Of a stretch of 64,000 nt of DNA, positions 14,560-64,000 are shown piece after piece. How positions within the stretch are numbered: position 1 is the stretch's first letter; the number at the start of each line of letters is the position of its first letter. The position numbers and the translations under genes were made by a program. The notes below the pieces were generated by a model. The model did not search any database. It saw nothing but the letters and a program-made list of their open reading frames with translations, and was not told where the DNA came from. This stretch comes from Antedon mediterranea (lineage: Eukaryota; Animalia; Echinodermata): positions 11,518,795 through 11,582,794 of the forward strand of contig NC_092670.1 of the NCBI RefSeq assembly GCF_964355755.1, given 5' to 3'.

Positions 14560-14849
14560 TGTAAGATTGAATTGTGTCCAGCATTCAAAAGTGTCCGGGT
14601 GGACACTTTTCAGCATTGGATAGTGTCCAGTTGCATGTTTCAACGGGTTCGTGGGCGTTTTTCAACAATTTAATGCTGTCCGGCCCGTTTAATAATGTCT
14701 GACCCATGGATTGAAATGCGTCCACTATTAAATACTGTATCATACGTTTTATGATAGGTGGTTGTTTTTATCACGCCTGCACTTGTCTTGTCTTCTTTTA
14801 ATAACCAATAATACTTAATGATGCCAAACAAATTTTTTTTTTCTAATTA

Positions 14850-17366: not shown

Positions 17367-17898
17367 ACAGACACGACTAAAAGGTGAAATAATAATAACA
17401 AATAATAATAACAGGATTTTTATAGCACACATACCACAGAGTGCTCAAGGCGCATTAAAAAAAAAATAATAATAAAAACAAATCATACAACTCTCCCGGT
17501 CCCGAGAGCCGCTGTTTTGAGGTTGACCTGACAATTGTGGCAATTACCAATTGGGACATTACCCTTGTTGGACATCTGGTAAAAATAAATACTGATTATG
17601 CTGCCACTTTAGTACACAAAACGATAAATAAAAAAAAATAATACAACTTGTAGCATTCCATTTAAACACAGTAGGCCCTGTTCAAAACTGCTAGTGTAGA
17701 AAAGTCAAATCCACCCATATAATAAAACCTAGAACTAGCTAATGATGTAGAAACACCAACAGCTTATTTATCAAATAAAAATCAACATTATACTCATATA
17801 CAACTCAACAGGTAATGTAGTAACGAAAATTGCCTCACAGCTAATGTAGTTAATATCGCCAGCTAATAAAATATTATATATTTTACAAACCTAAAGTG

Positions 17899-20800: not shown

Positions 20801-23800
20801 TTTAAATTTATTTGAATAGACCTCCATGTAAAGTCATTAAAGGCTACATGATTTTTTTATATTTTAATATGTGATAGTAGGAAATCATTGTGTATAATGA
20901 GGACTATGAATCTGATATTTACTTGCATTCTTATCTTTTTAAAATATTATTTATAATGCCGGTAATGAGTTTAAAATTTAATTATATTGACTATTTTTGA
21001 TAATCATCATGTCCTTATAAATTCATTTATACTTTTTTTGTGTAATATAGTTCATATATTATGTATTAAATAAATTGGTAAGGCCCTATACTGTTATTAT
21101 TTAAGGAAAGTTTATATACACGATTATTTTATGCCTACCAATATTAGTAATAATTGTTTATGTAAATATTTTGTCTAATTGCCTTGATTTTTGTATAGGC
21201 CAATGGCATCAATGTTTTTCTCAAAGCAAATTAGCCTAATAATGCCACATTTAGACACATGATTCATTGATTTCTGATATTCTGTACTTGTGTATGCATT
21301 ACTAAAATAGTAGTTAATATATTTCATTTATAATGTATGTATAAACATATATTCATATTTTTTTAACATTTTTAAATTTAAAAATTATTACAATACCTAT
21401 CTACCTTTCTGATATTGTTACTATTATATAATATTCTTTGAGGCAGCAATAAAAAAAAAATTAGAACAATTAATTTGACTTATACTGTACTATGTTAGTT
21501 CAGGAGATGAAGTGTGTGTGGGTAGAAACTAGTGTGTTGGAGGTTGGTGGTGTGAGGTGTATAGTTGTCACTTTAATTAGATGTTTTCTGAAGAAAAGAA
21601 GTAAGCACATACGCTTTCAAACAACTCCAAGAAGATTCACACAAAAATAATTACTTTCCAATAAAGTAGTATAACAGTGTATATTACAGTACATTGAATA
21701 AACTCGAGCGGAATAATAACGCACATAAAAAAACATTCATTTTCATTTCGAAAAGTGCCCTCTCTAGTTTTCTATTAATTTATTAATAATTATTATTAAT
21801 TAATGAGTAATATGAACATATTTTTAACATTCAATGCTGGAAGTTGGTTCTACTCCTAACATAGTTTCATATCTCCAAATTTCATTAACGTATTCAAAGC
21901 ACTTCAATATTAAATATCACATTTAACATAAAAATTCGGGTTTTGGATAGAATTTTGCTTAAAAACATATACAAAAAACATCGATAAAAAATACTTTTCG
22001 TTTTCAAAAACATTTGATACTTGGTATAAATGTTCACTATTGGTTGCTCTATTCACAGAAGAAAATTGCATTCATGAACGTTTTTTGTTGGTTGTTTTTT
22101 CAAAATAGTTATTAGCTTGAAAAAAATGAGTTGGAATTGTATGGTCATTCATAAGTGTACATTTTGTAAAAACGTAAATTTAAAAAATCAGTGATATGGC
22201 TTGATAGTTATTTTTTGTTTGCAATATGGATGGAGCAACCTATATTGAACATTTATACCAAGTATCAAATGTTTTTGAATACGAAAAGTATTTTTTATCC
22301 ATGTTTTTTGTATATGTTTTTAAGCAAAATTATATCCAAAACCTGAATTTGTAATGTTAAATGTAATTTATTTAAGTGCTTTGAATACGTTGATGAAATT
22401 TGGAGATATGAAACTTTGTTAGGAGTAGATACAGTTTCCAGCATTAAATGTTAAAAATATGTTTATATTACTCATTAATTGATAATAATTATTAATAAAT
22501 TAATAGAAAACTAGAGAGGGCACTTTTCGACAAGAAAATGAATGTTTTTTATGTGCGTTATTATTCCGCTCGAGTTTATTCAATGTACTGTAATATACAC
22601 TGTTATACTATTTTATTGGAAAGTAATTATTTTTGTGTGAATCTTCTTGGAGTTGTTTGAAAGCGTATCCGCTTACTTCTTTTCTTCAGAAAACATCTAA
22701 TTTAGGTCTTAAAGTGACAACTATACACCTCACACCACCAACCTCCAACACACTAGTTTCTGCCCACACACACTTCATCTCCTGAACTAACATAGTACAG
22801 TATAAGTCAAATAAATTTTTAAATTTTTTTTTATTGCTGCCTCAAAAAATATTATATAATAGTAACAATATCAGAAAGGTAGATAGGTATTGTAATAATT
22901 TTTAAATTTAAAAATGTTTAAAAAAATATGAATATATGTTTATACATACATTATAAATGAAATATATTAACTACTATTTTAGTAATGCATACACAAGTAC
23001 AGAATATCAGAAATCAATGAATCATGTGTCTAAATGTGGCATTATTAGGCTAATTTGCTTTGAGAAAAACATTGATGCCATTGGCCTATACAAAAATCAA
23101 GGCAATTAGACAAAATATTTACATAAACAATTATTACTAATATTGGTAGGCATAAAATAATCGTGTATATAAACTTTTCTTAAATAATAACAGTATAGGG
23201 CCTTACCAATTTATTTAATACATAATATATGAACTATATTACACAAAAAAAGTATAAATGAATTTATAAGGACATGATGATTATCAAAAATAGTCAATAT
23301 AATTAAATTTTAAACTCATTACCGGCATTATAAATAATATTTTAAAAAGATAAGAATGCAAGTAAATATCAGATTCATAGTCCTCATTATACACAATGAT
23401 TTCCTACTATCACATATTAAAATATAAAAAAATCATGTAGCCTTTAATGACTTTACATGGAGGTCTATTCAAATAAATTTAAATAAAAGGGTCATAATAT
23501 GTCTTCGTCTCCAGTTCGTGGAAATTGAAGTTAGGATTCCATCATTTCAACAACAAAAAATATTCAAAATATCCTGCCAGTTTGCATTCAAGACCTGCAA
23601 CCTTCTTAGTTTTTAATACGAGTACTGCTTTCTATACACATAACTTTGATTTCTGCAAAAAAAAACAAAACTCTGTAACAATGTACTTTAATTACTGTAA
23701 TAATCTAGGTATAGATTATGTTGACCGGGCCAGTGAGAGTGCGATCGACTGTACTACCATAAGTCCTGTAGGTGTATACAACTTATTTCTTGTCTACAAA

Positions 23801-25769
23801 GTGTATAGTAGTATGCTAATAGTACTATTATTAGATTAGGTAGTTGGGAGTAGTTTGGAGAGATACATCTATCTATAAAAGAGTACTGTAATGGAACTAT
23901 CTGTGTTAGCCGCCTTTGTATTTTTAGATATAATACCAATAGGTACTATGTATTGGGAAACAATTCAACAGTTATGAATAAAAAAAGTCTTATGTACTCT
24001 GTTACTCTGTATGTTGGAGGAAATAAGCATAAGAGCAAATAAAGCCTTGACCACAGGGTGTAAGTCACTATTTTGAATCAGTAGTATGACTTCTTAAGAA
24101 GTAATTAAAAAATTATCATTGTATGATCAAAAAGAAATATTATAATATCTAACTTTCTCCTTTATATAAATATATTATTTTATCCAAGGGGTTGCAAACA
24201 CAAGTATTCACATGTCTTGTTAAGTATTGCACCTTTGTCCTGTCTTTATGTTTTCTGTAATGTCACTGCACTAACAGGTGACCGGTAAACGAGCTTCGCT
24301 CTTACGGTTATCCATCCATATAAGTTGTTCATCTCTTATGTTCAGAAATTGAAATGGTAAATAAACTGAAACTGAAACTGTGCTTATGTGGTACAGGTTG
24401 ACGAGCCAGGAATGATGGTAGTGCCAGTATACCGTGTAGTTTAGCCTCAAGGCAATACCATGTAGCTGGAGTAGCTTGGACAAATACAGTAGAGATTTAT
24501 GAGACTTGGTGTCAGGTGTGTGATGATTCAGTATGATAAATTTGTGCTGTGAAAGACAAAATTGTAGAATTAGGAAGAAAATATTGTAAAATATAACAAG
24601 GAAATTATACTATAGTATACTTAAGGGGTAACCGTATAATACATAATTAATAGTAATAAAGGCAATGGCAATTACTTATATTATGTATACATTACAATAT
24701 TACAAATAAATTCATATATTATTTTATTATGATAAGGAAATCTGTTTTAGAATGAAAAAAAGCCGTCCCAACACAGATTTGAACCCAGCTATCAATAAAG
24801 ATATAAAACAAAATAGACCATATTGTAGCCGGACTGGGTAGCGTAGACTTACTTGAGGCCTAGGCATAGTACGATTAGCTAGAAGGATACAGGTCAACCC
24901 GTACCCATGCCATGCCAACACGCTCGTACCCAAATTTTGGTTTACATATATCCAAAATTTTGGCTTACTCGTACCCATCATGGGCTGCCTAGTAGTAGTA
25001 GTAGTAGCAGTAGCCTAGCCTAAGGCAGCAGGCCCGGCCCTAGCCTACTACAACTTAAGTCTAGGCCTAGCCTAGTACTAGTAGGCCTCTCTAGGCCTAG
25101 CCTAGGCCCTAGTAGTTAACATCATACATACGCCCTAGAGCCTAGTAGTAGCTACCTACTACTCACTAGCTAGGCCTAGGTAGTAGCAGTAGTAGTTATT
25201 GTAGTAGTATTATTGTATTGTAGTATTAGTTGTAGCTGTCCGGTGATCCTTGGTCACTTGTCTAGATCCCCTAGTAGGCCTAGGCTAGGCCTAGTACGTA
25301 GTTATTCTTCAACAGTCACACAATTCAGATTCTGCCGGCCGCTGATTGCTAGTGAACAGGGGGAGGGAGAGAAAGAGTTAGAAGAACTGAAATAAGCCGT
25401 GACGTATAATAAACATCATACAAAATAATAATATAACTAACGAATCCGTATAATATAATAATGTTGTATGTTATAAAGTAAAGTAAATGCGTTTAATATA
25501 ATACAATTATATTATAATATAATGTATTTTATTAATAATATAATATTAAATGTTCATAATATAATGCTAAAACCAAATAATATAATACACAAAGTCAATA
25601 ATTTGTTACATTTTTCACATAATATATTAGAAATAGATATAATATAATGCTAAAACCAAGTAATATAATGCAAAACGTATAATTCATTACAATACAATAT
25701 ATAATATAATAAAAAAATGATATAATAATATAATATTTTGAATACTTCAGACAGCTGAGGCTTGCCATA
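17899..25769. mobile_element. 7.9-kb foldback element: ~3.5-kb inverted arms, ~175-bp spacer, 7-bp TSD
   Basis: TATGGCAAGCCTCAGCTGTCTGAAG at 17899 mirrors CTTCAGACAGCTGAGGCTTGCCATA ending at 25769. TAAAGTG is duplicated at 17892-17898 and 25770-25776. Mirrored ORF pairs in the track differ by only 0-2 residues. Arms run ~17899-22053 and ~22231-25769. Confidence 0.92.
18604..19231. mobile_element. 628-bp non-autonomous TTAA-specific DNA transposon (Kolobok-like AG..CT ends)
   Basis: TTAA at 18600-18603 and 19232-19235; imperfect TIRs AGCCCCATTCCCTAC / GCAGGGAAGGGGTCT. The empty site (acaacTTAAgtctagg) is present in the other arm at ~25055. Confidence 0.85.
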
Positions 25770-35500: not shown

Positions 35501-38500
35501 TTATTCTTCATTGGAAAATGGCCCAATTAACAATATACAGTACAGTAAGTATAAAAATGAGACTGAAAAGTTCTAAATTCATTAAATTATCATTTTATTC
35601 TTTGTTACTTATACAATCTATTCAGTATTATTATTAATATTATTGTTTTTTTTTAATATAAATAATATATTTACATTTTTTATTCTAGAGTCATCCAAAA
35701 CTGGCAGAGAAATTAAAGTTAATGATTAAAGACTGGGCAGAAGATTTTAAAGGAGATTCTCAACTTAGGTAAAATAAATGAATCAATCAATTAATAAATC
35801 AATAATCAATCAATTGAACAATCAATAAATTTATCAATTTATAATCAATAATCAATCAATTGAACAATCAATGAATTTATCAATTTATAATCAATTAATT
35901 GAACAATCAATTATTCAATCAAATAATCAATCAATCAATCAATTGGCAAAGTGTCTACTTCATTCTGTAACTTTATGACTGCAGGATGCAATGCCAACGG
36001 CTATAAAGCAACAGAACGTTTAATTAATATGTCTTCTTAATTAATTAATTATAGTTTATTTAATTTTACTACTGTATATCTAAACATTTTATATCCTTTT
36101 TAGTTTAATTCCAACGCTATATCAAGAATTAAAACAAGCAGGGCATGATTTTGCACCAGATAAACAGGTAAGACAGTATTTAAATGCAATAAATCTGTCC
36201 TTGAAAGAAAATGTTTTATTATAATATAAACAAGGGTATATGAAAAAAAAAAAAAAAATAAATGGCAGTATAGATAGAAATGTGTGTAAAATGTTTGGAT
36301 ATTGATTGTAACCTTAGACAAACTATTTTTTATTGTTTTAGCCTACAAAGAGTACACCTGTTTCTAGTAACCCAAACGTAGTGTCTTCACAACAGGAAGA
36401 AGATGATATTGCAAAAGGTCAGTTAGATAAAAAATATTTTATGGTCCGCAATTTTCTGTTCTTGTGCATTTATGTAAAAGACTAGTCCAGTCGTAGAGGT
36501 ACCAACTTAAAAAAAGAATTACCTTGAGATTTATGAAAGGATGACCTAATTATAGAGGGTGTTAATGTTATAGAATTTGTAATATATCAAAACATAGAGG
36601 GGCCCTATGTTAAAGAAAATCCTAGTCATCGATATCTATAGTAAACAATAAGTATGCAACTCCATTTCCAAATGCAGAAAATGTGTTGGCAACATATTTT
36701 TGTCTTTATTTGTAAAAAAAAAGGAAATTGTTAGTGGGAGTATAACTCAAAACATTACTCAAATGTCAGGATATCAGGTTAGGTTTGTTGAACAGGTGAT
36801 TTGCCAAGACCAGTGGTTGCCTACAAGTACATACAAATGCTACTGTTATTTCTTAGTTATATGTTTTTATTCCGAAATTGTATATTATATTACTCATCAT
36901 TTTGTTTTTCAGCTATCCAACTGTCTTTAGAAGGTAACTCACCTAGCGCTGCCAGTAGCCTCTATCCCACTACCAACATTGCATCGGTAACAGCAAGCCC
37001 CCAGCCTAGGAGGGAGTCACGTAAGGTCAAAGCTCTCTACGACTTTGAGGCTGCTGAGGATAACGAGTTGACCTTTAAAGCGGGAGAGTTTATTAGCGTT
37101 TTGGATGATAGGTTAGTCATGTGAAAATCTTTTGCTAAAACTCTGTCTACACTTGTTTGACAAAAAAAAATATGATTGGCCCAAATATGGTAGTGATATG
37201 ACATCACCATGTCCATATATGAGCACGTCACATTTTTTTGTCAAAAAATATGATAGTGTAGACAAGGCTTAACATGTGGTACTTGGTTAATTAGATATTT
37301 GAGAGCTTGAACTCGAACAATAGCCTGGCGTTCATACCTCTAGACCACAGAGCTTGCGCTGATGGCTAGGGTAGGTGACTCAACTCTTTGGCTCAAAGCT
37401 ACTCCACAGTAGTTAATACATTTAACATTACCATGTAAACAACACTAGGTCTATTTGAAAATATACAATTATTTTTAATACTAGAATTACCAATTTTTAT
37501 AAAACTATCATTTAAACCCAACCCATTTATTTGAATGTTTACCTTAAATGTGTACCTCTTCCCTTTCTACTTTTATACATTAGATTAATATTCTTAATTC
37601 TCATATTTATTTGGATGTTATGTATCCTTGTCATTCAATTTTTTATATATCTGTATGTACTTTTATGTTCATCTTACTGTAAACTATGTAAAATTCAATC
37701 TCTGTTTACTTAGATTGCAATAAAGATTATTTGATTATTGATACTCTGTGATAGAATCTTGTTACAATTTCTTTTAAAACTTTTTTTTAGTGACGTAAAT
37801 TGGTGGAAAGGTGAAAATTCAAGAGGGGTCGGGTTATTTCCTTCAAATTTTGTTACTGCAGATTTAACAGCGGAAACTGAAGCTGGTAAGTTGGTGTTTG
37901 TAAATTATTATCCGCTTGCATTGCTTTTCATATATTGAATTTCAATAGTTTGTTTCTGTGGATCTCAGAATTAATATCAGTTTGCCAAAATTAATGACGC
38001 CCATGTTTGCAGAAAAAAATCACTTTTGAAATAAACTGAATAAAGTAGAACCCATGGGATCCACCAACAACTGAATATTTATTTATTTATTTATTCTTTC
38101 TTTTGACTGGATTGCATTTTCAGTAACGCAGTACTGCTTTCCAAAATGGTCCAGTTATAAGTTTAAAAGTAAATAAAAATTATAACATAAATACACAGTA
38201 GGCCTAATTTAAAAGATATATACAGAACAGTTAAAAACAAATAAAATATAAAAAATAAAATATTAAAAAAAATGTAGGACATAGATATATTTCCCGCCCT
38301 CCTTGTAACAGGAAAGTGTGTCCTCTAAATATGGTTGTCCCAAAGGAGAGGTTCTTCTCTTGTAGTAGGTTGATGGTGTAAGAATGAGAGTGATCTCTGC
38401 CAAACTTTTGGCACAGCTGAGTCAATACAGTAATTAATAACATTTTATCTTTTATAAAACAAAAAGATCAGAAACTACAGTAGTCATACAATTTCTTAAT

Positions 38501-41500
38501 CGTATGCTCTGTCTACACTATCAAACATTACGTGAGAAAAAAGTGATGTGCCCATTATATGGATATGATGGCATCATGTCACTACCATATTTGGGCATAT
38601 CACACTAGTTTGGTAGTGTAGACTAGCCTTTGCATTGTTTGGCATTTTAAGATGAAGTCTTAAGCTCTGTCTGCACTATCAAACTAGTTTGGAAAAAAGT
38701 GTGATATACCCAAATAGAGTAGTGATATGACATCATCATGTCCATATATGGGCACATAACATATTTTTGTCACATAAAGTTTGGTAGTGTAGACAGACCT
38801 TTACTGTTATTTTTGTACCAAATCATTCATTTCAGATATCAAAGCAAGAGAGAAAAAAAGTGTCTCCTTCGATGAGGAGGTCGAGGTTCGTGCAATTGAA
38901 TCAACTCCAATTGTGGTAACAATTGATGAGACTAAAATGGAAGATACATTAACAATGCTTCAAAATGCAGACCCGACGGAAGAAAGACCAGATCCAGCGG
39001 AAATGCTCGTTTCAGAAGGTAATCCATTAAAAAATGTCTAGTTTTCAGAAGTGGCCACTAAATGGAGGCAAATAGTGAAACAGCTTTGTTTGATGTTACT
39101 TGATTTCTACTGTATTATATTCACATCCAACAACAAGAAGCCTGCCACTTACAACACATAAAAATAGGAAACAAAACAAATAAAAAGTGTATATATATGA
39201 GCCATCTAGATTTAAATATATACCTCAATTTTACGTTTAAAACAACAAAGAGAATCATAAAAAATATCAATAGAATCATCTATAGAAACAAATGATTTAT
39301 AGAATTTGTAAATATACAAATAAAAAAACTCTGTTTAGAAGCATTGACTTGAGAGAATTGATTATTGAATTCACTTTATTCTAAAAGTACACATTTTAGA
39401 CTGGTGTGCAACCATAGGAGCCTTAAAGCTCTGTCTACACTATCAAACTAGTTTGACAAAAATGACTGTGATGTGCCCAAATATGGTAGTGATGTGCCCA
39501 AATATAGTAGTGATATGACATCATAGTGTCTATATATGGGCACATCACATTTTTTTGTCACATAAAGTTTGATAGTATAGACAGAGCTTAAATTAAATTA
39601 TTCTTTTCTTTAAACATATAAATATGTGTTATCAAAGTTTGTCAACAGTTTTATAATAGGTAAACATTGTATATTTTTTAATTCAGAAACTTGTAATCGT
39701 ATGGCGCCCCTTATAGACCAAGAACTTGAAAGAATCGACCGTGAACATGCGGACCTAACAGGATTGAATGAGAAACTAATTAGAGCATTTGACACATATC
39801 AGAAGTTAATGAGGGAGGCACCTGTGTATGGGTATTCATTAAGGGGGTCAGTTGGGCCTGGAACAGCTTACAGTTCTTTGCCATCTCAGGTATCTAAAGT
39901 TATACTTATTTAAATGTGTAAAGCTCTGTCTACACTATCAAACTTTATGTGACAAAAAGGTGTGATGTACAGTACCCAAATATGGTAGTGATATGGCCAA
40001 ATATGGTAGTGATATGGCCAAATATGGTAGTGATATGGCCAAATATGGACACATCACATTTTTTTTGTAGACACAGCTTGACAGGGTGTAAATTGAGAGG
40101 TTTGCTCAGTGGGTGCCATGTTGAAATAAGCTTTAGGCTAGGTGGAAGTCTTTGAACATAGGCGTTCCTGCCCAGAACAATTGCATCCATGATTTTTAAC
40201 ATTATGATGTGAAAAATGTCTAAAGAAATACCTGTATAAATACTAGTGTACTATAATGATAAAGAGTGAAAGAATTTTTTATTTTCAACCAATTTAGCCC
40301 AGTGGGTTAACTAATATACAGGGGCTCTCTTTAATAAAATATTGAAACAATTATTGGAAATTGTACCATTAAACATGGTCATGATTTCCCTGAGTGTGTG
40401 TGGATGAAAAACTGAATAACAAAATAATCATGTGTATTTTATTTTATAGCCGTATGGGTCCATGCCTCCGCCACAGTACATGCCGCATGGTGCAATGCAG
40501 CAAATGCCTGGCATGGCTATGGGAATGCCACAAATGGTAGGGCAACCTCAGAATAGTCAAGGTATGGCAGGGATGCCTCATGGTATGGTACCACCTGGTG
40601 TAGCACATCCAGGGATGGGGCCAGGTGCACCACCTGGTGTGCCTCCAGGTATGTCCACAGGTGTTGTACAAATGCCAGGTGCCATGGAACAACAAACGGG
40701 CCAGATGCAATATACATCAAGGTAAAGTCTTGAATTAAAACATATTGTGCATTATTTTGTTTTGTTAATCTTTATAAATTCTATTTAATTTAATTTTTAA
40801 TTGTTGAATGTTTATGTCTTGTCATAATTGTATTTTTCGTAAAATTGAAATAAATAAGAATTTACTCATATTTTCTATTTACTACAATAGAACCCCCCCC
40901 CCCCCCCCTTTGGGACACAATTATTGGAGGGAGGGGAACCCATTTTACTTATTTTTAAAAGAATTCTTGTACACTATTTTTTGCTGGTATCTATCTTCTT
41001 ATTGTACCTTAACTTATGTTGTTTTAAGGTTGGGAGGGGGGTCGAAGTCTTTTGTTTATTGGGCCGCGCTCCACACTTTTGTTTATTATATCTTGATAAC
41101 TTCTCTGTTGAAATGTTAAATGAAGTGTGGAGAAACAAATACCAAGTAAACAAATACATTGAGATGACATCCTTTTCATGAAAGAGACCTTTTCCTGATT
41201 TAACACTTCTGAAATAACCACTATTCAGAGAAGACTATATTGGGTACTTTATCCCTTGATTCCTAAGGTTTTACTGTAGTTAATATGACATTATTTATTT
41301 GCTATATTATTTCAGTCCAATGCAGAGCGGGACATACACACATCAGAGTACAGGTGTTCCTGGCATGTCAGTCCCTGGCAGTCTTATGAACTCACAGCAA
41401 AGCAGTAGCACAGTAAGCCTTCCCATGTCATCATCTAACCAACCGCCATCATTAGTTTCATCAGCACAACTCGGTGTTAGCAGCGGGAGCTCATCCTTGC

Positions 41501-41631
41501 CACCAATGCACACCACAGGTCACATGACCACAGATTTTAGCAACCAAGGCAACGCTCAGATGCCCCCATTTCAGTCAATGTCGCCACCTAACCAACCAGT
41601 CTATAGCCAATCACCGCAGTTTTTACTCTAA
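32525..41631 (+). CDS. STAM: Signal transducing adapter molecule STAM (ESCRT-0; VHS-UIM-SH3-GAT-P/Q/M-rich tail), 13 exons, 595 aa
   Basis: Exons 32525-32567, 33888-33972, 34398-34473, 35137-35232, 35689-35768, 36104-36167, 36342-36417, 36913-37111, 37791-37885, 38836-39018, 39687-39889, 40450-40721 and 41316-41631; phases consistent. Motifs [20 protein letters not shown] (VHS), EEDDIAKAIQLSL (UIM), [28 protein letters not shown] (SH3), [16 protein letters not shown] (GAT). Confidence 0.96.
37139..37269. mobile_element. MITE family A copy
   Basis: ctctgtctacact ... gatagtgtagaca. Confidence 0.75.
38506..38800. mobile_element. Two adjacent MITE family A copies (38506-38629, 38663-38800)
   Basis: Same TIRs; the second copy is flanked by TTA/TTA. 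Confidence 0.8.
39427..39588. mobile_element. MITE family A copy with TAA TSD
   Basis: taa-AGCTCTGTCTACACTATCAAACT ... AGTTTGATAGTATAGACAGAGCT-taa. Confidence 0.9.
39922..40078. mobile_element. MITE family A copy with an internal 21-bp tandem expansion
   Basis: ccaaatatggtagtgatatgg repeated 3-4 times. Confidence 0.75.
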
Positions 41632-43066
41632 CAGAAAAGACAGTAAATAGAATATACTTCGGAATAGTTCATTATGCGGTAGGGTATAAATACATATTTA
41701 TGGATGATTAATATTGAATAACTAAATCATGCGTCAGTTTTATTATTATGTGTTTTTAAGCATTATTATTTATTTATTTGTGATGAATATGGTAATTTAG
41801 TATAAAAGAGAGGAACATATTAATTTTTTTATTATATTGAAGTATACTGTAATATTATTAGTGTACTGTAACATAACCCTAATACACAGAAAAATATTAC
41901 TGCAGTAATTGCAATATTTAATGCAGCATTAAATTATATATTACTGCATGAATATTATGTATTCTTATTTCATATTATAAATAGAAATACGGAACGGAAG
42001 CATAATGTTTATTTTTCATATACACATTTACAACAGCCCAGGTTTCTCTGTTTTTGAATTAATTAATAATATGTACATCAATGGTGGTAAACCAGTATAT
42101 AAGTTTAGAAATGTCACGTGAATTCAGATAATTATTATAAATATGCACTTGACTTCCAGAAGCATGGGTGTGTCCAGGATATTCAAAATGAGGGTATGCT
42201 AATAGTAACATAGTATAAATAGTCTGTCAAAAATAAAAAAATCAAAAATTAATTTTATAATTTAGCTGTCAAAGGATCACATGCTTCAAGTGACCTCTTA
42301 CGCCCCTCTGGATCCACCCCTGAGAATTGATCTTATGTCTGGCTGCGACAAATACCCACAGTGCTGTACTATGTACATATTCTCTGTGGCGTGCGGCGTA
42401 TGTTAAGGGGCAGATCATGTTGAAGCCACAGATAAACCCTTTGATCTTGAGTTCAGCATCCTGTTGTTAGACTGCCTTGGTCAAATAAATAAGGTTGAAA
42501 ACTTACCCTCCTTTGCCTTTCTCTAATAATAACCCTTCTAACCGTGGTTGAATAACTTTGTGCCTGCCCCCAACCCTACCACCTTCTGCCGCCTATATTA
42601 TATAAGGTGAAAGAAAGAGCTTCTAGAAAAGATTTTCCCATCTTCCGTGTCCTTCCCTCCCCTTTGCTAATCACATCCAAAATAAATTCATTTTTTATTG
42701 TTATTATTGAGAAAGGTATCATTACAAACATGAAAATGTAAATCTATCTGCTAAATATGTAGATAAAATTAAGAAATATAGAGGTCTAAATAAGATAAAA
42801 TTAAAAAATAGAAAATGCCACCAGTTTAAGTTAAACTGAAAAAAATAAATAATACCACACTTGAATATTTTCATTTTCAAAATGTAAATAAATTGTAATT
42901 AATATACTATTGTTGTCAAATAAGTCGTTTTGGTTTTTTAAATGGCAATAGGGACAATATTTTAATTGTTAAAATGAGTTTTATGTGTCTCTCCTAATAT
43001 ATTGTTTGGTGGGATATTTGCTAGTGTATTTTTTGTTATTTGTAATCAAACACACACTTACATTAC

Positions 43067-43197
43067 GCTCTGTCTACACTATCAAACTAGTTTGACAAAA
43101 AAATATGATTGGCCCAAATATAGTAGTGATATAATATCATCATGTCCATATATGGGCACATCACCTTTTTGTGACATAAAGTTTGATTGTGTAGACA
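43067..43197. mobile_element. MITE family A copy
   Basis: gctctgtctacactatcaaact ... agtttgattgtgtagaca. Confidence 0.8.
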
Positions 43198-45361
43198 AGT
43201 ATACAGTTACAATAGAACCCCTACTTTGGAGACCTCTATTACACTTTCTTATAAAACAGATGAAAGGACAATACAATGCAATACAGTTTGTTGTGTCTTG
43301 AAGGTGTCCCCTTAATAGAGTTTCCACTGTATATGTATTTTCACCAAGGGTTATGATTGTAATGAATGTCTTACTTTTATTTTCGGCATGGTCTCTATCG
43401 GAATATGGTCCTTAAATGGAGACATGCGGATGCTTTTGTTATTTATACAGTTTTGGGTAATATAAGTATTATATGGGCACGGTGGAGTATTAAATATTCA
43501 CCTTTAAGACGTGACTGATTTTAAGCATGCATCATAATGTTTGTCCTCTCTAGGCCTACTTTAGTAAGTTAAACACTACTGTGTTTTTACTAATGAGTAA
43601 AGTACAAATCTCACTACTGTAGGCCTATCTAGTTTATGCTTTTCCCGGTTTCAGCCTAAAAAAGCCTACAAACGTTTTTAAAACAATATAAAAAGAGCCA
43701 TATAATATAAAACCGGTGGAAGCACACAAACTGCAGTAAAATGTTTTCGACGGACGGAAGAAAGACGTATACGCAATGCAAGTAATTTGTGACCAATCAC
43801 AAGCGATGGATTATCCAAACTGTTGCATTGTCATTGGTTAACTCGCTTGTATTGCGTTTACGTCCTTGCGTTGCGTCGTAGCTTTACATGGGAAGGGAAC
43901 CACTCAAAGTCAACTACACATTGCCAGTAAAATTCATCTCTAATAAAACATTTATTTGCTCGAGTTTGAAGTGATATTTTATTGAATTATAAGTATCACC
44001 AATACAAAAGGTTACTATTAGTATATGTATGTTTTATTATCTGTGTGTATGCAACTGCTAAATGAATGCACTTTATATAATATACTATTCCAATTCGAAT
44101 ATAAGCCCAGCCTCAATGCATTTGTGACGGGCTTACACCTTAGGACCAAAATGGTTCCAGGAGGAAGGAAATGAATTCTCTAATATTGTCAATGGGCTTA
44201 TGATCGGGTCAGTATAGTATATAAATGGAAATTAATAATATTTTTATTAGTATATAACATTTTTTTTTCCAAAGAACCCAACAAATTGTATGTAATTATT
44301 ACCATATTAACATGATTTCTATTAAATGAAAGCGGAGAAAATAAGAGTCTGAAACCATGTGTGTGCTTTTCTATATCTTGTAAATGTGGGCATGAGGAGG
44401 ATTTGGATGGGTGTAGGTTGTTGGAAATATAATGTACTGTACTAGAACATCTGCTTCAAATTGACCAACCTATCGCCCACGCTTGGTATGGACTTTCTGC
44501 TGTGCTCGAACACTTCTTTTCTATTTCAAAAAAGAAATATATATACTATAAAGCCCTATAATGTTCGTGTGATAGCAGCGCAGACTTATACAGTATGTCA
44601 CGCAATGTCGGTGGATCTTATATTCTTTATTGGTATCACGTAAACTACATTATAATGAAGTTGACAGTAAATATTCAGAATAGGCCTATTTTACGAGAAA
44701 AAACTAACATGCGGAATCACATTTCTAAAAAAACCAAATACAATACAAACTAAATTCAAATTTAAAAAAGTATCCAATAAAGGAATTAAATATCATTTGA
44801 TTGCATTTTTTTAAATACAGTAAATCTTATTTCATATTTAAATATTACACTAATTGCTTGGTTTTGGTGTAATTGCGAACTTATTAACACTTTTAACATT
44901 GACATGGTACTAGCATAACTTACAATAAAAATATGATGATGATCATGAAGACACATTTAAGAAAGTATTCATTAAAACAATTGAATTAAACAGTACAAGT
45001 AAGTTTTTTAATTTTAAATATTGCACTAATCTAATGTAAATGCACTAAATTAATCTTAGTGCTAATTAGAGTGTATCTGTAAAGTTGAATTATTTTCAAA
45101 TATTGCACTAACATAAATACACTAAACTTTTACTTATTACATGTTGGATTGTATCAGTAAAGTTTATTTTAGTTTGCACTTGTACAGGCAATACACTAAA
45201 TTTAATGTAGGCCTAACACACCTACATTATTGCAAACATGTTCAATAATGAAATATTTATTGTTACTGTTCTATCAAAATAATTTAAAAACGATAAATTA
45301 ACTTTACAAATCGATAATCCTCAAACACTCCGTGAAACGTGATAAAGTTAAACAAGATATT

Positions 45362-47075
45362 CTAACAACACCGCGGCCAATACCACGAACCACCATCAGG
45401 ACCACCACGGCCGTCCTGTTTTGAAGTGTTTTCTTCTAGTTTAATGATTTCGTTATCATCTTGTTCTGGTTTTTGGGCGAGGGCACTCTTTGCAATCGTT
45501 TGGAAAGCTTCCTTGACTTGAATGTTATTCTTGGCACTGGTTTCAAAATAAGGAATGCTGTACTTCTTACACCAAGTGTGTGCCATTTGTTTAGTTACCT
45601 GTAAAATACGTCACTATCAATCAAAATTACATATTGAGAGAAATTAACAGTGAACATGGTTGAGCAATGTAATAAATAGCAGCATATCTTTTCAATACAT
45701 ACCACTGTACGGTTTTTCAAATCGATTTTGTTTCCTATCACGACAAAAGGAATATCCGTGCTTGTCCGATTGAGGACCTCTGTGTAATAACTTTCAAGTG
45801 ATTCAAAGGATCTGCTGTTACTTCTGTCTGAAGTTACATCAAATACTAAAACGCAGCCGTGAGCTTTACGAAAGAATGTAGTTGGTAGACTCTTAAACAG
45901 TTCTTGACCTGCTGTGTCCCATATCTAGTGTACCAAATAATGAAGAAATCATTGCTCTCGAAAAAAAGATTTTTTTTTAATGAAATCGCATGTTATTGTA
46001 AATTAATTTCCAACTCAGAGAATAGGTGTACATACTTCTATATTAACTGGTCTGTTGTCCACCAAAACCTTTGTTTCATTAATGCCTGTTCCTACGGTTG
46101 GGATAGATTTATCACTGAATGTGTTGTTGACATATTGGTTTATCAAGGCGGTTTTTCCAACACTAAGACAAAAAGAAACCCATCCTTTTTGAATTACAGT
46201 AGTAGTCATCACCAATCACAAATAAGTGTGATATTTAATTTTAATACAATTTTAATTTAAAAAAAAAAACCTATACAACTAAACACAATTAAGGAAATTC
46301 AGGAATTTTCCTTTAAATAGAAAGAATATAGGAAGTGTTTAAATTCGTGATGTTGCTTAATATAATAGTTAAGTGCATGTAAATACCACCACTGAAAGTT
46401 TCTTACTTATGTTCTCCAAGGAGAATGATTTTCAACAACACTTCCTTCATAATTTGTGTACCCTGCAAAACAAAAACATCATCACTCAATAAGCTTTCTA
46501 GTTTTAATATTCACCGTATTTATTGAAAAGAACTTATTTTGTGTAATTTACAGGATACCAAGATATTAAAAAACCATGGAACAGCCACAATGCTTGGAAT
46601 TATTTATGAATGTTGTATTATACTTTTAAAATATATACTTTCAGAAACTGGTAGACCTACAAATCAAGTTAAAGTTGGATTGCTCGCCGCCGTAATTGCA
46701 TAAATTACGAGTGCATCGCGGTTCCGTCAATCCATTACATACTGTCAATTTTTCTGCACTTACCGCCCTAGCACCCAAGATTTTCTTTTCGAAATCTTCC
46801 TTTCTTGAACTTGTCGTCAGATATTTAGATTGCACATCTTCTATCCACTTTTGCTCATTATCAAAATCTGCATCCGATTCTAGTGCAGAAGCTATCTTCT
46901 CATGGACTTTCATTACGCTGTTAAAAGCTGTAGTCAAACGGTCGAATAAGTTATTGACGGTGTTAATGTCTGTTGCCGAGTTTTCTCCTATTACTTGGTT
47001 CAGTCCCTTCATCGCTTGGGTAAAAGATCCCATCACATTTCGTTTTTCTTTATTTAGCTGATCTAGATCTGCCAT
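45362..47075 (-). CDS. Divergent Rab7-like small GTPase with a 104-aa N-terminal helical extension, 5 exons, 317 aa
   Basis: Exons 47075-46764, 46462-46407, 46162-46036, 45924-45703 and 45598-45362, GT-AG and in phase. G-motifs LKIILLGEHNVGKT, WDTAGQE, GNKIDL and YFETSAK; C-terminal CC. INQYVN, PFVVIGNKIDL, WC..IPYFETSAK and AFQTIA are Rab7-type. The GTPase part (from ATG 46450) is high confidence; the first exon is inferred from splice signals. Confidence 0.85.
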
Positions 47076-48330
47076 ATTGTTGGTTAGTTTACCTTTTACT
47101 GCAGCTGCATACGCAATTATTCCTCGGTTGCTGCCTGTCTGCTGGGTTTTGGAAAATTGTTGTTGGAAATTTCGATTTCACTATAAATAGGCCTAAATTA
47201 TCATATTCAATAGAAATTGATATGATATTATTATTCACTCTGTCAACCACGATCTTTAAAAATTACTGATTGACTGTGTTTATCATGTCATGAGTGAATG
47301 ATTTGTGATCTTTTTTCTATACGTATGTTTATAATATTTTATATACGAACTATTATATAATTGATAAAAAGGTTATAAAATATACAAAAATTACGAAAAA
47401 AAAGGACGATTGGATAATGGAGTATAATAATTATGTATGAAGATTAAACAACTAATCATTACTAATTGTATATGAATGTTAACGAATAAATAAAAAATGG
47501 TGGTTCAAAAGAGGAGAAAAGTATATTATTTTCCTAATTATACAGTAGGCCTATATTAACATATAATTATATCCATATTGGATTTGAAAGTGACCGCCAA
47601 AGTAGATTGTCATTATTATATGCAATCGGATATGAATCATACTGTTAATAACAAGAATACATTTGTGTTGGTCAATTCCTAAAAACTAAGCAAGCATTTC
47701 ATTTCAGCTCACCACCCAAAGACCGAACTCCGCAAACCAGATGCACAGCCAACTTTAAACGGGAAAGGAGACTACCTATTTTATAACGAATCGCAGTTTC
47801 TGACGTCACACTGCATATAAAACAACATTTGTTATATTATCCGCGTTTTTTAACCAAACAAATCACTAGTTCAAATAGATTAAGTCGGGCTGATGTCATT
47901 TTAGTATAAATGGGAACATATACTGTTTAGGATACAGAAATGATTGAGAGAGGCTAGGTTTTGGAATTGTACGCCCATTGAAAACATCTCGAAGTTATTG
48001 ATATAGCTGACAAGTTTAATTCATGAAAACATTGCAAATTAATCATAAAAGACCATATAGGCCTATGCTTTAATTGGTCTTCAGTTTTCTAACTTAGACC
48101 ACCAAACACTTTCGGACAGTAGTGGTTGTAGTAGTTGATGATCATGCAGTGTAGCAGAGCAACTAATGATGTTATAGCCCTGGTTTATAGTAGGTTTAAT
48201 TCGGTAACGCACGCGCATCTGACATCCCTATCATTAAAATCGGAAAAAAAATGTCCTAAGCATATGGCACATTTGACGTGCCATACTCTGCCGCGAATCG
48301 CGATCGTTTTTTTCTAGCGATCATCACAAA

Positions 48331-51300
48331 ATGGCTGAAGACTACGATGGAAATCTTAGTACTTATAAAGCTCAATTACAACAGGTATGTTGGTCTGGTA
48401 GAATATAAACATTTGTAACGTTTTATGATATTATTTTTAACAATATAGAGTAAATTACAAGAATAAAGACATTCTGAAAATGTCTACAAATGTCTTTTGT
48501 GCTAGGCATATCGATAGGCCTGCCCACTAAACTTACGTGTGGTCTGCACTAGCTGGTCCGGGCCTAGCTGGGCTAGGTAGACCTGCGTGGTGGGCCAATT
48601 GATACAGTACAGACTAGGCCTAGCTTATTTAGAAAATGGTCGAGTACAATGCGATGAAACTAGGACAATACTAGGCCTATATTCTTTTTAAAATGTATAT
48701 TTTTAAATTTCTTTATTTTTTAGATCTATAAAAAATTATTAAAATGTGTAATTTATTAAATATATATAAAGCCTATAGGCCTGGCCCTACTTGCTAGGCC
48801 CTATATACCCTATATACTGTAGGCCTAGTTAGGGCTAATTCGAAAACAAAATAATTACCAGTTTGTTTTTGTTAATTAAAGGTTGAGGCTGCATTGACTA
48901 GTGATCCAGATAATGAAGAACTACTTAAACTAAAACAAGATCTTCAGGTATGTTGGCTAGCTAGCCTATTATAAAATTTAATGATTAATATTTAATTTGC
49001 ATTGTATTTTTCTTTTTCTTATTAACAAATTTACAAAATAGAGATGTATCTCATATAATATATAACTAAGTAAAGCTACTAATTTATTAAGTAATAAATG
49101 TTAATAATTTCAGCTCTATGGGGAGCTTTACTTCTTATGACACACCACTCGACTGCATACAGTACAGACAGATACATAGTCGAGTGAAAATTAAAGCCCC
49201 CAAAGGGATCATGTCAACATTAATTGACTGCAGTTACTGCAGTAACCACATTATTTACTGTACAGTAGTAAAACTTTTAGTTTGTTTTAACATGTTGTAT
49301 TTTTTCTCCAAAAAAACTTAATTTCTCCATTGTTAAATACAGTCCTATTGCATAAACAGGTTAAAGAGTAAACAAATTATAGTCACTGCAGTAACTGCAG
49401 TAGAATAATTTTGACATGATTCCTAATGTAAGTTGGAACAATTTAATAACTACACCATATGCTTATTCTTTTGGAGGTGAAATAAACAAAGAAACAAGCT
49501 ATAAATGAATTGTTATTTCTACAGGAAGTAATAGACCTGACATGTGATTTGATCACTGCTACCCCAGAGAGTGTACAACAAGCAGAAACCTCAGTAATAC
49601 CTCTGCAAAAATGGAATGTAGGAGACAGGTGTTTGGCCATGTATGATGAAGATGGATTGTAAGTGTCATATTTTTCATCAAGCCCACAACATATGTAGAT
49701 TGACACGTTATAATATTCAGAACTGGTCGCACAACATTTATCACACACCACCCCTCTCCCCGATATAATCTGAATGGTTTTTGTCTCGCCATAATAATCA
49801 TATTTTGATAAACCTTAAGCTCTGTCCACTCACTACAAAACTTTATGTTACAAAAAAATGTGATGTGCCTACATATGGAAACAATGATGTTTCATCGTGA
49901 TGACATATTTGGGCACATCACACTCTTTTTGTCACACTAGAAATCTCAACCCATACCTGGATATATTATTATTGGTGAACTTATTTATACATTTTATACC
50001 TACCTTTAACCCACACCCCATACCTGGATGCATCCAGAACGATTCGGCCCTGAGACGATTCGGCCCGAGACTTTTGGTGGCTCACTTTTTGGTCTGAAAT
50101 GTTTTTTTTTATTATTATTTTACTCAATTCATCTCTTTCAGTATTTCACATCTGGACTAAATGTAAACTGCCTGCTACCTCATTTTAATTAATTGAAGGC
50201 CTCTCTATTATGCCCATATGACCAGTAAAAATGTAATTTTACTGGTCCTCTTGTCTAGTTAAAAAACATTAAGGGAGAATTAACTCTCTCTTTGTCAACA
50301 AAACAATAACTTGATAATAAATATGGTGATGAAGATACTGTAGCTATTTTAGCATGACATCTAGTAGCAAACATCTTAATTAAACAATAATTTGATCTAT
50401 AGATCTCCATAATGATTGCTATGTTAATTGCCATTTAGGTTGTACCCTTCAAATATTGACGAAATTCATGAAAATGGTACAGTAACAGTCACCTTTGATG
50501 GTTATGGAAATTCAGAAATTGTAAAGGTAAGTTATTTGTGTCTTTAGCAATGTTGTTATCATTATAATAATAACATTTATTCAACATCAACAGACAGTTT
50601 ACATTGTCTATGGTCAAGACACACAGAAGCCAAAGTGGCTTGTCTTTGTAGTCCCTAAGCATAAAACATAGACGGACGCATTACAATAAATGAAAATTTT
50701 GATAATATACAAAGTGAGATCAAGCATAATAAAAACATATCATAGAAATATAATGCAATCATGGAGGGAGTTAACAATTTTAGAAGTAATGCAAAATAGT
50801 AGTGTATCCCTCCAATTTGGACCACCGTCGGATTTTAGAGAACTCGCTCCTGATGTCTACGGCTTACTTTGGCAGCCAGCCGTCAGTCAGTCCTGGACAT
50901 CCCCGGCGTCCATCTAGACTGTACTGTGTGTGTACACTGATTAGATGAGGAGTGGACTGGTCCACAATTAGAGCGGTCATGCGTCTTAGGCGTTAAATCT
51001 AAAAAAATTATTGTAAGCATAATATGCATGCAATGTACATTTTATAAATCTGAAAAATATATTTTAACCATTTTAGAAACTTTCTCTTGTTCTGTTTCTT
51101 TTTGTTTGACAGTTTGCAGGGCAAAATCAATATGTTGATTTAAAGTTTGCAGTACACCACCACCAATTTCACCTATATTCCAAGTTTCCTGGACTTTATG
51201 CATTCTCACTCTTGAGGACGATCAAAGTATATTGATCGAAACGTCAAGAAACTCAACAGTTCTTTTTAAAACTAAATATATTTAGATTTTCTCAACTCTG

Positions 51301-52675
51301 AAGGTTTACTGACGTTTTACTCAATTTTCTTCTCAGATTAATAAACTACGAGAACTAGTTGAGTCAAAGGGAGAAAAAAGAACATCAGAAGAAGCTGGTC
51401 TAGAAACAGATGGAAAACCAAAATCTAAGTAAGTTGGTACATACCCAATAGCTAATTTAACAACCTGTTATGAATTCAGGTAGTGTGGCACTGTTTTGGC
51501 CATAAAAATAAGAAACTGTGCAGAGGCAAGATTTGAAAGCCAGCATGTACAGTTATGGTAATAGTGCTTGATATTTTATTTAATCAGTAAATTAGAATTT
51601 TATTGTTTACTTTTAGTTTAAGATGTTTGATGGGGTTTTAAAATTTATGTCTTGCCAATATATTATTATACTTCTTCTTCACCGAAGTGGTATATTTTGG
51701 TCTGCTGTGATTATAATTATTATATTATAAGACACATTTTAATTTAAATTGTAAATCTTTTTTTTACTTGCATTTATACATCTGTATTTTATATTTCTAA
51801 TGATATGTACATATCATTAGATATATATCAAGATTCGTACATTGTGAGCGATTATGTTTTCCAATTGAGATTGACTTTTATTGCACAAAAACTTAAATCC
51901 TGTCTTGAAGTTAAGCTGGGTGGTCAGATCAAATTTGAGCATTGTGAAAAATCTTTTGCTGGTGATCTATACCTGACAAGCTTGAATAATTTTTTCCATT
52001 ACAGAAAAGAGCTTTTAGAACAACAAAAGGAATACAAGAAAAGAAAACAACAGAAAAAAGCAGAAAGATTAAAACAGATGGAACAAGCTCATGAAAAAGC
52101 TAAAAACAACTGGTTAGATTTTAATAGCAAGGTTGGTTGTAGTCTTCTACCATTCAAACTTCATTCATAAATTGACATGTCAAATCCCCAGACGGATTAT
52201 TTTTTGAAAAAAATCAACAATAACCATTATACAAGGGTATTGGTAAACCCCTGCAAGTTACTATTAAAGATGCCAATATCTTTTAGTCGCGTGCAACACG
52301 ACTCAACAGCTCACTATGTCGGTCGGTCGGTAAACACTAACTCAAATTTGAGCATGCGACTGAAGCCATGTATGGCCTTGTTTAATAACAACTTCTATGG
52401 TTTGATATATATTTAAAAATGTTATAGCACCCTCTATGGTTTGGACTTTCATAAAACCTCACACTACAGTATTTCATTTTTCCAATGTTTAATACTAATT
52501 AAATTGTTTTATTTTATAGGCATTTAACAAAAACAAAAGAGGCTATGTGAAGAAAAGTATATTTGCGTCTCCCGATGAGTCCACTGGTAAAGTGGGTGTA
52601 GGTACATGTAACAAAGGAGGAAAACCAATGACTAAGTTCCAGAAACAAAAATACCAAGTTCCAGCAAAGAAATAA
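48331..52675 (+). CDS. SMNDC1: Survival of motor neuron-related splicing factor 30 (SPF30, Tudor domain), 7 exons, 238 aa
   Basis: Exons 48331-48384, 48882-48947, 49525-49658, 50439-50526, 51337-51428, 52005-52131 and 52520-52675. Motifs YKAQLQQVEAALTSDPDNEELLKLKQDLQEVIDLT, WNVGDRCLA..TFDGYGNSE and KKSIFASPD..GKVGVGTC. Confidence 0.96.
49818..49937. mobile_element. MITE family A partial copy
   Basis: Left TIR agctctgtccact and the core sequence. Confidence 0.65.
51208..51250 (+). ncRNA. Candidate minimal hammerhead ribozyme (Penelope-type)
   Basis: cTTGAGGA-c-GATCAA(agtata)TTGATC-GAAAC-GTC-aaga: perfect 6-bp stem II, GAAAC, palindromic ACGT; the core has U at position 3. Confidence 0.45.
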
Positions 52676-62218: not shown

Positions 62219-64000
62219 ATGAGTAAAATGATTAATTGGAACGAAAAAAAACAAACAATAAAGCAAAGATCTCGTGCTAAGTGGATAGAAGAGGCTGAAA
62301 AGCCAACCAAATTTTTCTTAGGTCTCGAGAAAACTAACTTTACGAACAAATTAATAGACGAATTAATAGATGAAGAAAAAAAAAACTATATTGGACAATA
62401 AACTTATAATAAAGGAAGTTGAGCATTTTTACAGTTCTTTATATAAAAAAAAAGATATAGAGCAAATAGATTTAAACGTATTAATAACAAACCAGAACTT
62501 CGAAAAAGTTTCAGAAGAAGAATCTCAAAAGCTTGAGAGTGAATTGACCTTAGCTGAGCTTACAAATGCACTCAATAAAATGAAAAACAACAAATCACCT
62601 GGAACAGACGGCTTTACGTCTGAATTTTTCAAGATTTTTTGGGGGAAACTGGGTGCTCTACTTCTTCGTTCTATGAAATATGGCTTTAAAACTTGTAATC
62701 TTTCAGTCACTCAAAAACAGGGAGCAATCACTCTAATCCCAAAGGCGAATAAATCAAGAAAAGAATTAAAAAATTGGCGTCCTATATCTTTATTAAATGT
62801 TGCTTACAAAATTGCTTCATCGGCCATAGCAGAGAGGCTAAAATCTGTCTTTCCAAATATCAATTAATGAAAACCAAGCGGGATTTATAAAAGGAGAAAA
62901 TGTTCGTATTTTATATGATATCCTCTCACTCTATGACGAAAAAAACCTACCTGGTCTCGTATTACTGGTAGATTTCGAGAAAGCTTTTGATTCCCTGGCG
63001 TTCAAATTTATTGATAAGTGTTTGACCTTCTTTAATTTTGGACCAACTCTTAAGAAATGGTGTGGACTTTTTTACACGAATATCTCTTCATGCGTTCTAG
63101 TTAATGGACACCCCAGCAATTTTTTCAATATTGAAAGAGGTTGCAGACAGGGCGATCCGCTATCTCCATACCTTTTTATTCTGGGAGTGGAAATTCTAAA
63201 CATGATGGTACGCCAAAATATTAATATTAAAGGAGTAACAATTGATACCTCTGAGATTAAAATGTTACAATACGCAGATGACACTGCATTTATTCTGAAC
63301 GGCTCACACAAATCACTTACTGAATGCATGAGTACACTTTCAACATTTGAAAAGATGTCTGGTTTAAAAATTAACATTTCTAAATCCAAAGCAATATGGT
63401 TTGGATTAAAAAAGTTCTCGAGTGAACAAATTAATACTAATTCAAATCTTGACTGGTGTGATAAAGGCCGTTTTGATTTTTTTGGTGTTACATTTGACTT
63501 AGAAATAAGCAAAATGACTAAAATAAATGTTGAAGAGATAACTGGTAAAATTAGGTCTACTATCAATGTGTGGCGTAAGAGAAATCTTACTGTGTTGGGA
63601 AGATTAACTGTGTTAAAATCTCTAATATTATCAAAACTTAATTATATTTTCACAATGTTGCCAAACCCTACTACAGCTTATCTAAATGAACTTAATAGGA
63701 TGTTTTTTTAATTTTGTCTGGAAGGGAAAGGATAAAATCAAAAGAAATAAGCTAATTAGAGAGTATAAGGATGGCGGAATTAACATGATTGATATCTTCA
63801 GTTACATAAAGGCATTTAAGATTAGTTGGATGCGAAGAATTTGTAACAACACTGGAATTCTCAATGTAGTTTTCAACAAAATATGCCATGGTAAAAAAAC
63901 TGAATCAATCTTTGAATACGGCTCATGCATGATTCAGAGGCTGTCGAAAAATATGAACAATTTGTTCTGGAGAGATGTTCTCCATTCATGGTCCGAGTTT
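62219..64000 (+). mobile_element. Decayed, 5'-truncated Tx1/L1-clade non-LTR retrotransposon (ORF2 reverse transcriptase)
   Basis: RSRAKWIEEAEKPTKFFLGLEK, KSPGTDG, WRPISLLN, DFEKAFDS, RGCRQGDPLSPYLF and YADDT; frameshifts at ~62385, ~62866 and ~63710; runs off the window. Confidence 0.93.

Follow-up and report, generated by a model that had tools for sequence, protein, structure and literature searches.

Host genes derived from the Gag proteins of retrotransposons have been surveyed by Wang and Han (2021, PMC8321522). According to the accessible part of their paper, a screen of 2,011 eukaryotes yielded 14 deep gag co-options, of which one, in a fungus, is of the Bel-Pao type; no Bel-Pao case is given there for animals, and all seven animal cases are Ty3/Gypsy. 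The screen relied on Pfam Gag models and required an above-family age, and co-option was judged by synteny or a host-like phylogeny over at least two host families, by selection on the gag part and by spliced expression. In the present work, we analyze a 64,000-nucleotide (nt) stretch of contig NC_092670.1 of the crinoid Antedon mediterranea, called the window below, and describe a minus-strand gene at 45362-47075 in which a domain homologous to the N-terminus of BEL/Pao Gag is joined in frame to a Rab7-like GTPase. Judged by its sequence, the gene represents a real case of gag domestication through gene fusion, with a putative function.

The gene consists of five exons and four GT-AG introns (301, 244, 111 and 104 nt) with an open frame of 317 amino acids (aa) that ends in PRCC (Table 1). 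The predicted protein, P0001, is letter-for-letter identical to RefSeq XP_071947241.1 and forms a cluster of one, and the gene model is already public at NCBI as 'ras-related protein Rab-7a-like', a name that is silent on the N-terminal extension. An in-frame fusion of a Gag-like exon to a Rab7-like GTPase had been proposed in the first-pass annotation of this DNA, whose donor, acceptor, phase and protein length all agree with this model. The ATG at 47075 is taken as the start because it is the one used by NCBI, has A at -3 and G at +4, and is homologous to Met1 of Gag. When the 1.9 kb upstream was simulated 5000 times with a first-order model, 1.5% of the simulations held an ATG-started run of at least 104 codons by chance. 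The Gag frame extends 40 codons into intron 1, up to a stop at 46643-46641, and intron retention would give a 144-aa Gag-only product.

The origin of exon 1 was examined by means of sequence and profile searches. A phmmer search against 1.84 billion representatives gave 22 matches at E ≤ 1e-3, namely the query itself, five repeat proteins, which were dropped, and 16 N-terminal matches at 24-34% identity. These 16 relatives align from Met1, with one His invariant and a Thr and a Trp near-invariant. One of them, P0133 from a sea cucumber, has DUF1759, a listed Gag domain (accessible part of PMC5933816), downstream above the cut-off, and four more show the opening motif of DUF1759 by eye. Scoring of 7994 candidates with the family profile gave 11 proteins of 728-1802 aa, 10 with DUF1759 and 7 with the Pao Peptidase_A17; three of the five long proteins that were rescanned have the complete order of DUF1759, protease, reverse transcriptase (RT), A17, integrase and DUF5641. 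Against a profile restricted to N-terminal columns, with the query excluded, exon 1 scores 85.5 bits, compared to 77-111 bits for residues 1-100 of the polyproteins and at most 12.9 for 2000 shuffles, the value of 85.5 being inflated because the 16 profile members were picked by their likeness to exon 1. An independent profile built from the 11 polyprotein N-termini, which are closely alike and count as one narrow family, gives 30.0 bits for exon 1 and at most 13.1 for 2000 shuffles. This homology identifies exon 1 as a BEL/Pao Gag-derived N-terminal domain. The first-pass annotation had left the choice between BEL/Pao and Gypsy open; the former is supported, and all classifiable relatives are BEL/Pao. 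No Pfam match to a Metaviral (Ty3/Gypsy) capsid or matrix was obtained, no Gypsy-specific profile having been used.

The Pfam scan of exon 1 gave no Gag match, and Pfam has no model for this domain. Fusions of this kind would therefore be missed by Pfam-based screens such as the one described in the accessible part of PMC8321522, and they may be commoner than such screens suggest. An Atlas feature search of exon 1 points weakly to DUF1759 clusters (0.81; recognition 1875, below the bar of 2300). The phmmer repeat proteins, together with designed PPR proteins from the PDB, were rejected as relatives, the domain profile giving at most 1 bit for three of the five repeat proteins and leaving two unreported. 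Locus searches with exon 1 found nothing in metagenome contigs, and two 37-residue viral matches were regarded as chance. The tree of the family does not place exon 1 with support. Two BEL/Pao Gag proteins, P0124 and P0126, apparently carry the N-terminal helical domain in tandem duplicate.

The rest of the element appears to be gone. A tblastn comparison of 17 Gag and Gag-Pol proteins with the window matches only 47084-46731, with neither a capsid (DUF1759) nor a pol remnant, and no repeat resembling a long terminal repeat (LTR) is present near the gene, the longest direct repeat in 41700-49400 being 27 nt. This bears out the earlier remark that neither LTR nor pol sequence is visible nearby; the locus is not an intact or recent BEL/Pao element. 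The donor of exon 1 sits within the old Gag frame, immediately past the domain boundary. Of twelve sequencing runs listed, none recorded as RNA, seven were compared with the window, and one of these, X1, comes from organism A and carries the window sequence with introns. No second copy of exon 1 at ≥80% identity was found in X1, so the exon is single-copy there and the insertion is suggested to be old. Among 110 candidates for longer proteins related to exon 1, a word search returned only XP_071947241.1 itself, and no second protein with both Gag and Rab parts was found among the best 120 of 2382 matches; both results are weak evidence of absence.

The Rab part matches Pfam Ras with an E value of 3e-50 and contains GEHNVGKT, T145, DTAGQE, NKID, ETSAK and CC. 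By these G1-G5 boxes and the C-terminal cysteines, the protein is a Rab small GTPase. Every subfamily-named Rab within the best 120 of 2382 matches is a Rab7, and the best row of an Atlas structure search is a Rab7 cluster; by descent, the Rab part thus belongs to the Rab7 subfamily. The canonical Antedon Rab7 (P0006, 205 aa) lies on another contig. In a Rab7 tree calculated without a non-Rab7 outgroup, the long branch of the Rab part is unplaced, with no support. We take the exon-intron positions to be like those of human RAB7A, which would imply a duplicate made at the DNA level.

Compared to 29 Rab7 sequences picked from 119 matches, the Rab part has changed in 35 of the 101 invariant columns. 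The changes affect 0/19 columns of the G-box core, 17/25 of the switch flanks and 18/57 elsewhere, these column sets having been drawn from general Rab knowledge after the alignment had been viewed. In neutral simulations in which indels are ignored, 15 of 3000 runs reach this divergence without a stop. The intact core and the rarity of stop-free neutral divergence indicate that the copy was retained for GTP binding and that the face turned to its partners was rebuilt meanwhile. In switch I/RabF1, QYKATIGADFLT has become KSIPTVGTGINE, and Phe45 of the hydrophobic triad is replaced by Ile; Trp62 and Phe77 of the triad and the catalytic Gln are retained. The triad, including Phe45, serves the binding of RILP, Rubicon and PDZD8 to Rab7 (accessible part of PMC8458453), and the conserved Rab7 effector-binding face, made up of switch I/RabF1 and the triad, is not preserved here. 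Since most of the invariant switch I residues including Phe45 have been lost, endolysosomal Rab7 behaviour is not to be assumed.

Transcript evidence comes from run X6, which belongs to another study of organism A and is taken as a probable RNA run because a GT..AG joint of the neighbouring gene is visible in it. One X6 contig (146 nt, depth 3.97; 116 + 30 letters) joins 46764 to 46462, exactly omitting intron 1, and the X1 sequence is continuous across this intron. The listed X6 contigs of exon 1 reach no further than 46880; 46881-47075 is without X6 cover and is uninformative either way. The chimeric gene looks weakly expressed in the X6 sample.

The same arrangement is found in organism B, represented by runs X10 and X12, which come from one study, have near-identical contigs and were counted once. 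One contig of 1099 nt spans 45900-46532 together with 46750-46876, at 19 differences, and so ties Rab exons 2-3 to the 3' portion of exon 1; it has a net insertion of 18 nt, a frame-sized length, in the second of these stretches. Joints of equal depth point to two more linked contigs, one reaching 46786 with a side of 64 letters and the other, weakly, 46976 with a side of 29 letters, and three contigs have differences in common at 46987-47017. Organism B holds at least two, probably three, linked haplotypes, and the Gag-Rab arrangement is probably multi-copy there. A contig of organism B differs from the window at six positions in 47051-47216. The physical linkage of the exons implies that the arrangement predates the split between A and B. 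The first-pass annotation had suggested a search for the fusion in relatives, and contig linkage in organism B is the one case in which the arrangement was seen.

The coding differences were classified from 40 of 198 substitutions and 12 of 86 indels, assigned to contigs by depth match; the frame and the donor in B lie outside this set. In organism B, 17 nonsynonymous and 2 synonymous codons are listed. In exon 1, the four changed bases listed for B amount to three codons, all nonsynonymous, and organism A shows one synonymous difference. The near-identical contigs of organism A contribute three further nonsynonymous codons against one synonymous in all. Seven nonsynonymous and no synonymous changes come from a spliced X6 contig that represents either a divergent allele or a paralog. 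No classified coding difference in A, B or X6 creates a stop. Pooled, there are 27 nonsynonymous and 3 synonymous changes, a ratio at which strong purifying selection is rejected (omega 0.2, P < 1e-7). The spliced X6 contig measures 570 nt, lies at 45038-45556 and is 97-98% alike in the 3' untranslated region (UTR), 91% in the coding part, with a shorter tail region; it is either a very divergent allele or a young paralog, and no such sequence is among the listed X1 contigs. Separately, organism A has at least one more divergent Rab7-like locus that aligns at 45478-45930 (X1, X6 and X7; contigs of 988 and 1115 nt, and of 906 nt at depth 134 in X6).

The explanation that we favour, with a probability of about one half, is that a Rab7 duplicate with a spliced-on BEL/Pao Gag domain has been domesticated as a prenylated, GTP-switched membrane protein that is dimerised by its Gag domain and binds new partners through its rebuilt switches. 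It builds on the exon structure, the one spliced contig, the Gag homology, the intact G-box core, the altered switches and the linkage in a second organism. A BEL/Pao element would have landed in a Rab7 copy that contained introns, at its first intron or upstream of it; a donor lying within the former Gag frame, just past the domain boundary, would have been joined to the Rab acceptor, and the remainder of the element would have decayed. The CC terminus, a recognised geranylgeranylation motif (accessible part of PMC5902227, according to which REP binds through RabF1-4), may be geranylgeranylated via REP/RabGGT. The Gag domain may drive self-association in a manner comparable to the coiled coils of large Rabs. 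AlphaFold, run with an alignment, predicts three long helices for it (residues 4-30, 37-64 and 68-103; pLDDT confidence score 93.5). A preprint on Belpaoviridae of nematodes (accessible part of 10.64898/2026.03.22.711591) gives the name matrix to the domain at the N-terminus of Gag and models it as a four-helix bundle, with a dimer predicted by AlphaFold 3 at an interface predicted template modelling score (ipTM) of 0.82. By analogy, the Gag domain is likely to dimerise the prenylated GTPase. The product would act with new partners and not with the usual Rab7 effectors, its expression would be low or tissue-restricted, and its rapid change would reflect either diversifying selection or weak constraint.

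It is important to point out that several observations weigh against this explanation. The splice junction, which had been named in advance as the RNA check, is found in a single contig from one run, with a short side of 30 letters, one below the 31-letter bridging threshold, and the check is offset by an unspliced X6 contig across the donor (46609-46792, depth 2.9) that is about as deep as the spliced one. Canonical-Rab7 contigs, assigned by eye by comparing their loose ends with P0006, have depths of 484-986 in the same run compared to about 4 for the spliced contig, contig depth being a poor measure of expression. Codon 109 could initiate a Rab-only protein from a different first exon. Of the 15 family-conserved columns, 8 are retained in exon 1, as opposed to 11-15 in the full-length members, and most of the lost ones belong to the basic patch on helix 1. 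The matrix of the Atlas virus is a four-helix bundle (accessible part of 10.64898/2026.03.22.711591), and its homology to the three-helix domain of exon 1 is putative. The 27:3 excess, taken from partial tables, is borderline with respect to neutrality (P 0.04-0.08). Finally, RabF1, 3 and 4, through which REP would bind, are altered, so that prenylation is not assured (REP binding from the accessible part of PMC5902227).

Alternatively, the gene may be a relaxed duplicate that was kept, or is now drifting, for the sake of a Rab-only protein begun at codon 109, the Gag exon being a roleless and rarely used leftover of incidental exonisation. The very low contig depth with an equally deep unspliced contig, a substitution ratio not clearly beyond neutral, and the loss of about half of the conserved columns of exon 1 all fit with this, as do the internal ATG, which has A at -3 and stands directly ahead of Rab strand 1, and the fact that 4/5 differences among the near-identical contigs of organism A alter a residue. 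We nevertheless consider it less likely, since exon 1 is open from Met1 to the end of the domain despite an insertion suggested to be old, the flanking non-coding DNA is rich in indels between A and B while the alignment of the 3' part of exon 1 nets a multiple of three, and the NCBI model has the identical full frame. Much less probable is a cellular origin of exon 1, as a three-helix bundle of the syntaxin Habc, spectrin repeat or BAR kind, in place of a Gag origin. A wide structure search returns generic helical bundles only, among them spectrin, syntaxin and designed proteins (best Z 13.2 for a designed bundle and 10.7 for spectrin), and there are weak Pfam matches to SOAR, BAR_3 and others (E 0.02-0.18). 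However, identities among the 50 structure rows listed are 3-17%, and these matches lie in the range regarded as generic for helical bundles; Foldseek and fold searches, whether with the model from the single sequence or with that from the alignment, gave nothing at E ≤ 0.001, and a profile search gave no solved relative (best E 0.12). The syntaxin-Habc-like resemblance that the first-pass annotation had wished to see checked comes down to a generic three-helix fold, and the sequence matches, which fall on residues 1-100 of Gag-Pol polyproteins and have His, Thr and Trp in common, already largely refute a cellular origin.

Another option considered was that of a defence decoy, an idea raised in the first-pass annotation, in which the Gag domain pairs with the matrix of an invading BEL/Pao Gag or with another protein of a parasite, and the prenylated Rab anchors it to a membrane that is degradative or a dead end, with an arms race behind the fast change. 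The nonsynonymous excess in both parts of the protein, with 7/9 codons of switch I changed between A and B, could be understood in this way, as could the linked haplotypes of organism B and the divergence of the spliced X6 contig, which is 11/120 in the coding part and 7/298 in the 3' UTR (Fisher P 0.005); an arms-race role has also been proposed for co-opted gag-host fusions (accessible part of PMC8321522). On the other hand, no related element at ≥80% identity is found in run X1, the capsid domain is absent from exon 1, and the changes of Phe45 and most of switch I make lysosomal routing via RILP-type effectors doubtful; the switch I window was furthermore selected post hoc. We regard this scenario as improbable, and the wider proposal of a fast-evolving, multi-copy crinoid restriction factor, a membrane-tethered Gag decoy with a GTP switch that would capture retrotransposon or parasite proteins, as equally speculative.

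The surroundings of the gene are included in Table 1. The downstream gene with SH3 is presumably STAM-like, and the head-to-head gene is one that we take to be SMNDC1-like; a bidirectional promoter shared between the latter and the fusion gene is possible. Low-depth X6 contigs at 47733-48147, between the head-to-head genes, stem from a non-coding exon lying upstream, from transcripts of the promoter or from carried-over DNA.

Table 1. Features of the fusion gene and of its surroundings in the window.
Feature	Position	Strand	Description
Exon 1	46764..47075	-	312 nt, 104 codons, donor GCG/GTAAGT (slash, splice site); predicted BEL/Pao Gag N-terminal (matrix-position) three-helix domain, Met aligned with Gag Met1
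Intron 1	46463..46763	-	301 nt, GT-AG, phase 0
Exon 2	46407..46462	-	4 linker codons, internal ATG (codon 109, 46450-46448), Rab strand 1, start of P-loop
Exon 3	46036..46162	-	End of P-loop; switch I (~46110-46075, codons 141-152), which is altered most and changes fastest
Exon 4	45703..45924	-	G3 WDTAGQE with catalytic Gln retained; switch II altered; G4 NKID
Exon 5, coding part	45362..45598	-	G5 ETSAK, hypervariable tail, terminal CC (45370-45365), stop 45364-45362
Upstream stretch, likely 5' UTR	47076..47216	-	Common to organism B; two upstream ATGs (47204, 47110)
First AATAAA 3' of stop, candidate poly(A) signal	45256..45261	-	From sequence only
Helitron-type Rep / PIF1 helicase / endonuclease frame	3-3839	+	Open, 1279 codons; domain scan
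Tandem arrays	6838-13200 and 14840-17369		Units of ~1.15 kb and ~130 bp
Inverted duplication, 2.8 kb	19232-22055 and 22227-25058		97.7% identical, 171-nt spacer
Flanking host gene with SH3, downstream of fusion gene	36792-41631	+	Domain scan
Head-to-head flanking host gene	~48300-52675	+	Spliced 5' intron ~48383-48880 in X6
LINE-type reverse transcriptase	62370-63708	+	Two overlapping frames; domain scan

No account of this gene was found in the literature on Antedon mediterranea, gag-Rab fusions and crinoid Rab7, most subscription papers being outside the search, and the literature searched holds no precedent for a Bel-Pao gag domestication in an animal or for a transposon-GTPase fusion. Both would be at hand if the restriction-factor proposal were true. 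The gene also offers a handle on the function of the BEL/Pao N-terminal domain, and it presents a normally near-invariant Rab7 that seems to have been rebuilt on its partner-binding face with the nucleotide pocket retained. Should this rapid change be adaptive, an unrecognised conflict at echinoderm endosomal membranes would be indicated.

Comparison with the known systems places the two halves of the protein. Exon 1 shares with the N-terminal matrix domain of BEL/Pao (Belpaoviridae) Gag its position at residues 1-100, a predicted helical fold and the signature residues; it differs in being severed from capsid, protease, RT and integrase, in being single-copy, and in having lost much of the basic patch on helix 1. 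The Rab part shares with canonical Rab7a (P0006) 56% identity, all G boxes, the catalytic Gln, Trp62, Phe77 and terminal cysteines, whereas it departs from it in the altered invariant columns, Phe45, a CC in place of CXC, and an N-terminal extension of 108 residues. The large Rabs Rab44, Rab45/RASEF and Rab46 likewise have a helical N-terminal module before a C-terminal Rab domain (accessible part of PMC8303950), an analogy that is functional only: their EF-hands and long coiled coil are of cellular origin, while the fusion has neither and is Rab7-derived, no EF-hand having been found in the domain scan of P0001, which thus does not belong with the large Rabs. Arc, PNMA, RTL and SCAN are host genes from retrotransposon Gag as well, but they are built on the Metaviridae (Ty3/Gypsy) capsid (accessible parts of PMC8321522 and PMC11011659); the present protein is without a capsid domain, and capsid formation is therefore not expected. 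Crtg14 is similar in that a Bel-Pao gag is fused to a host membrane-traffic gene, in that case PEX14 (accessible part of PMC8321522). It is fungal, old and was found by Pfam Gag models, whereas the fusion described here is from an animal, has the N-terminal domain only, has a Rab GTPase as partner and is seen in two related organisms.
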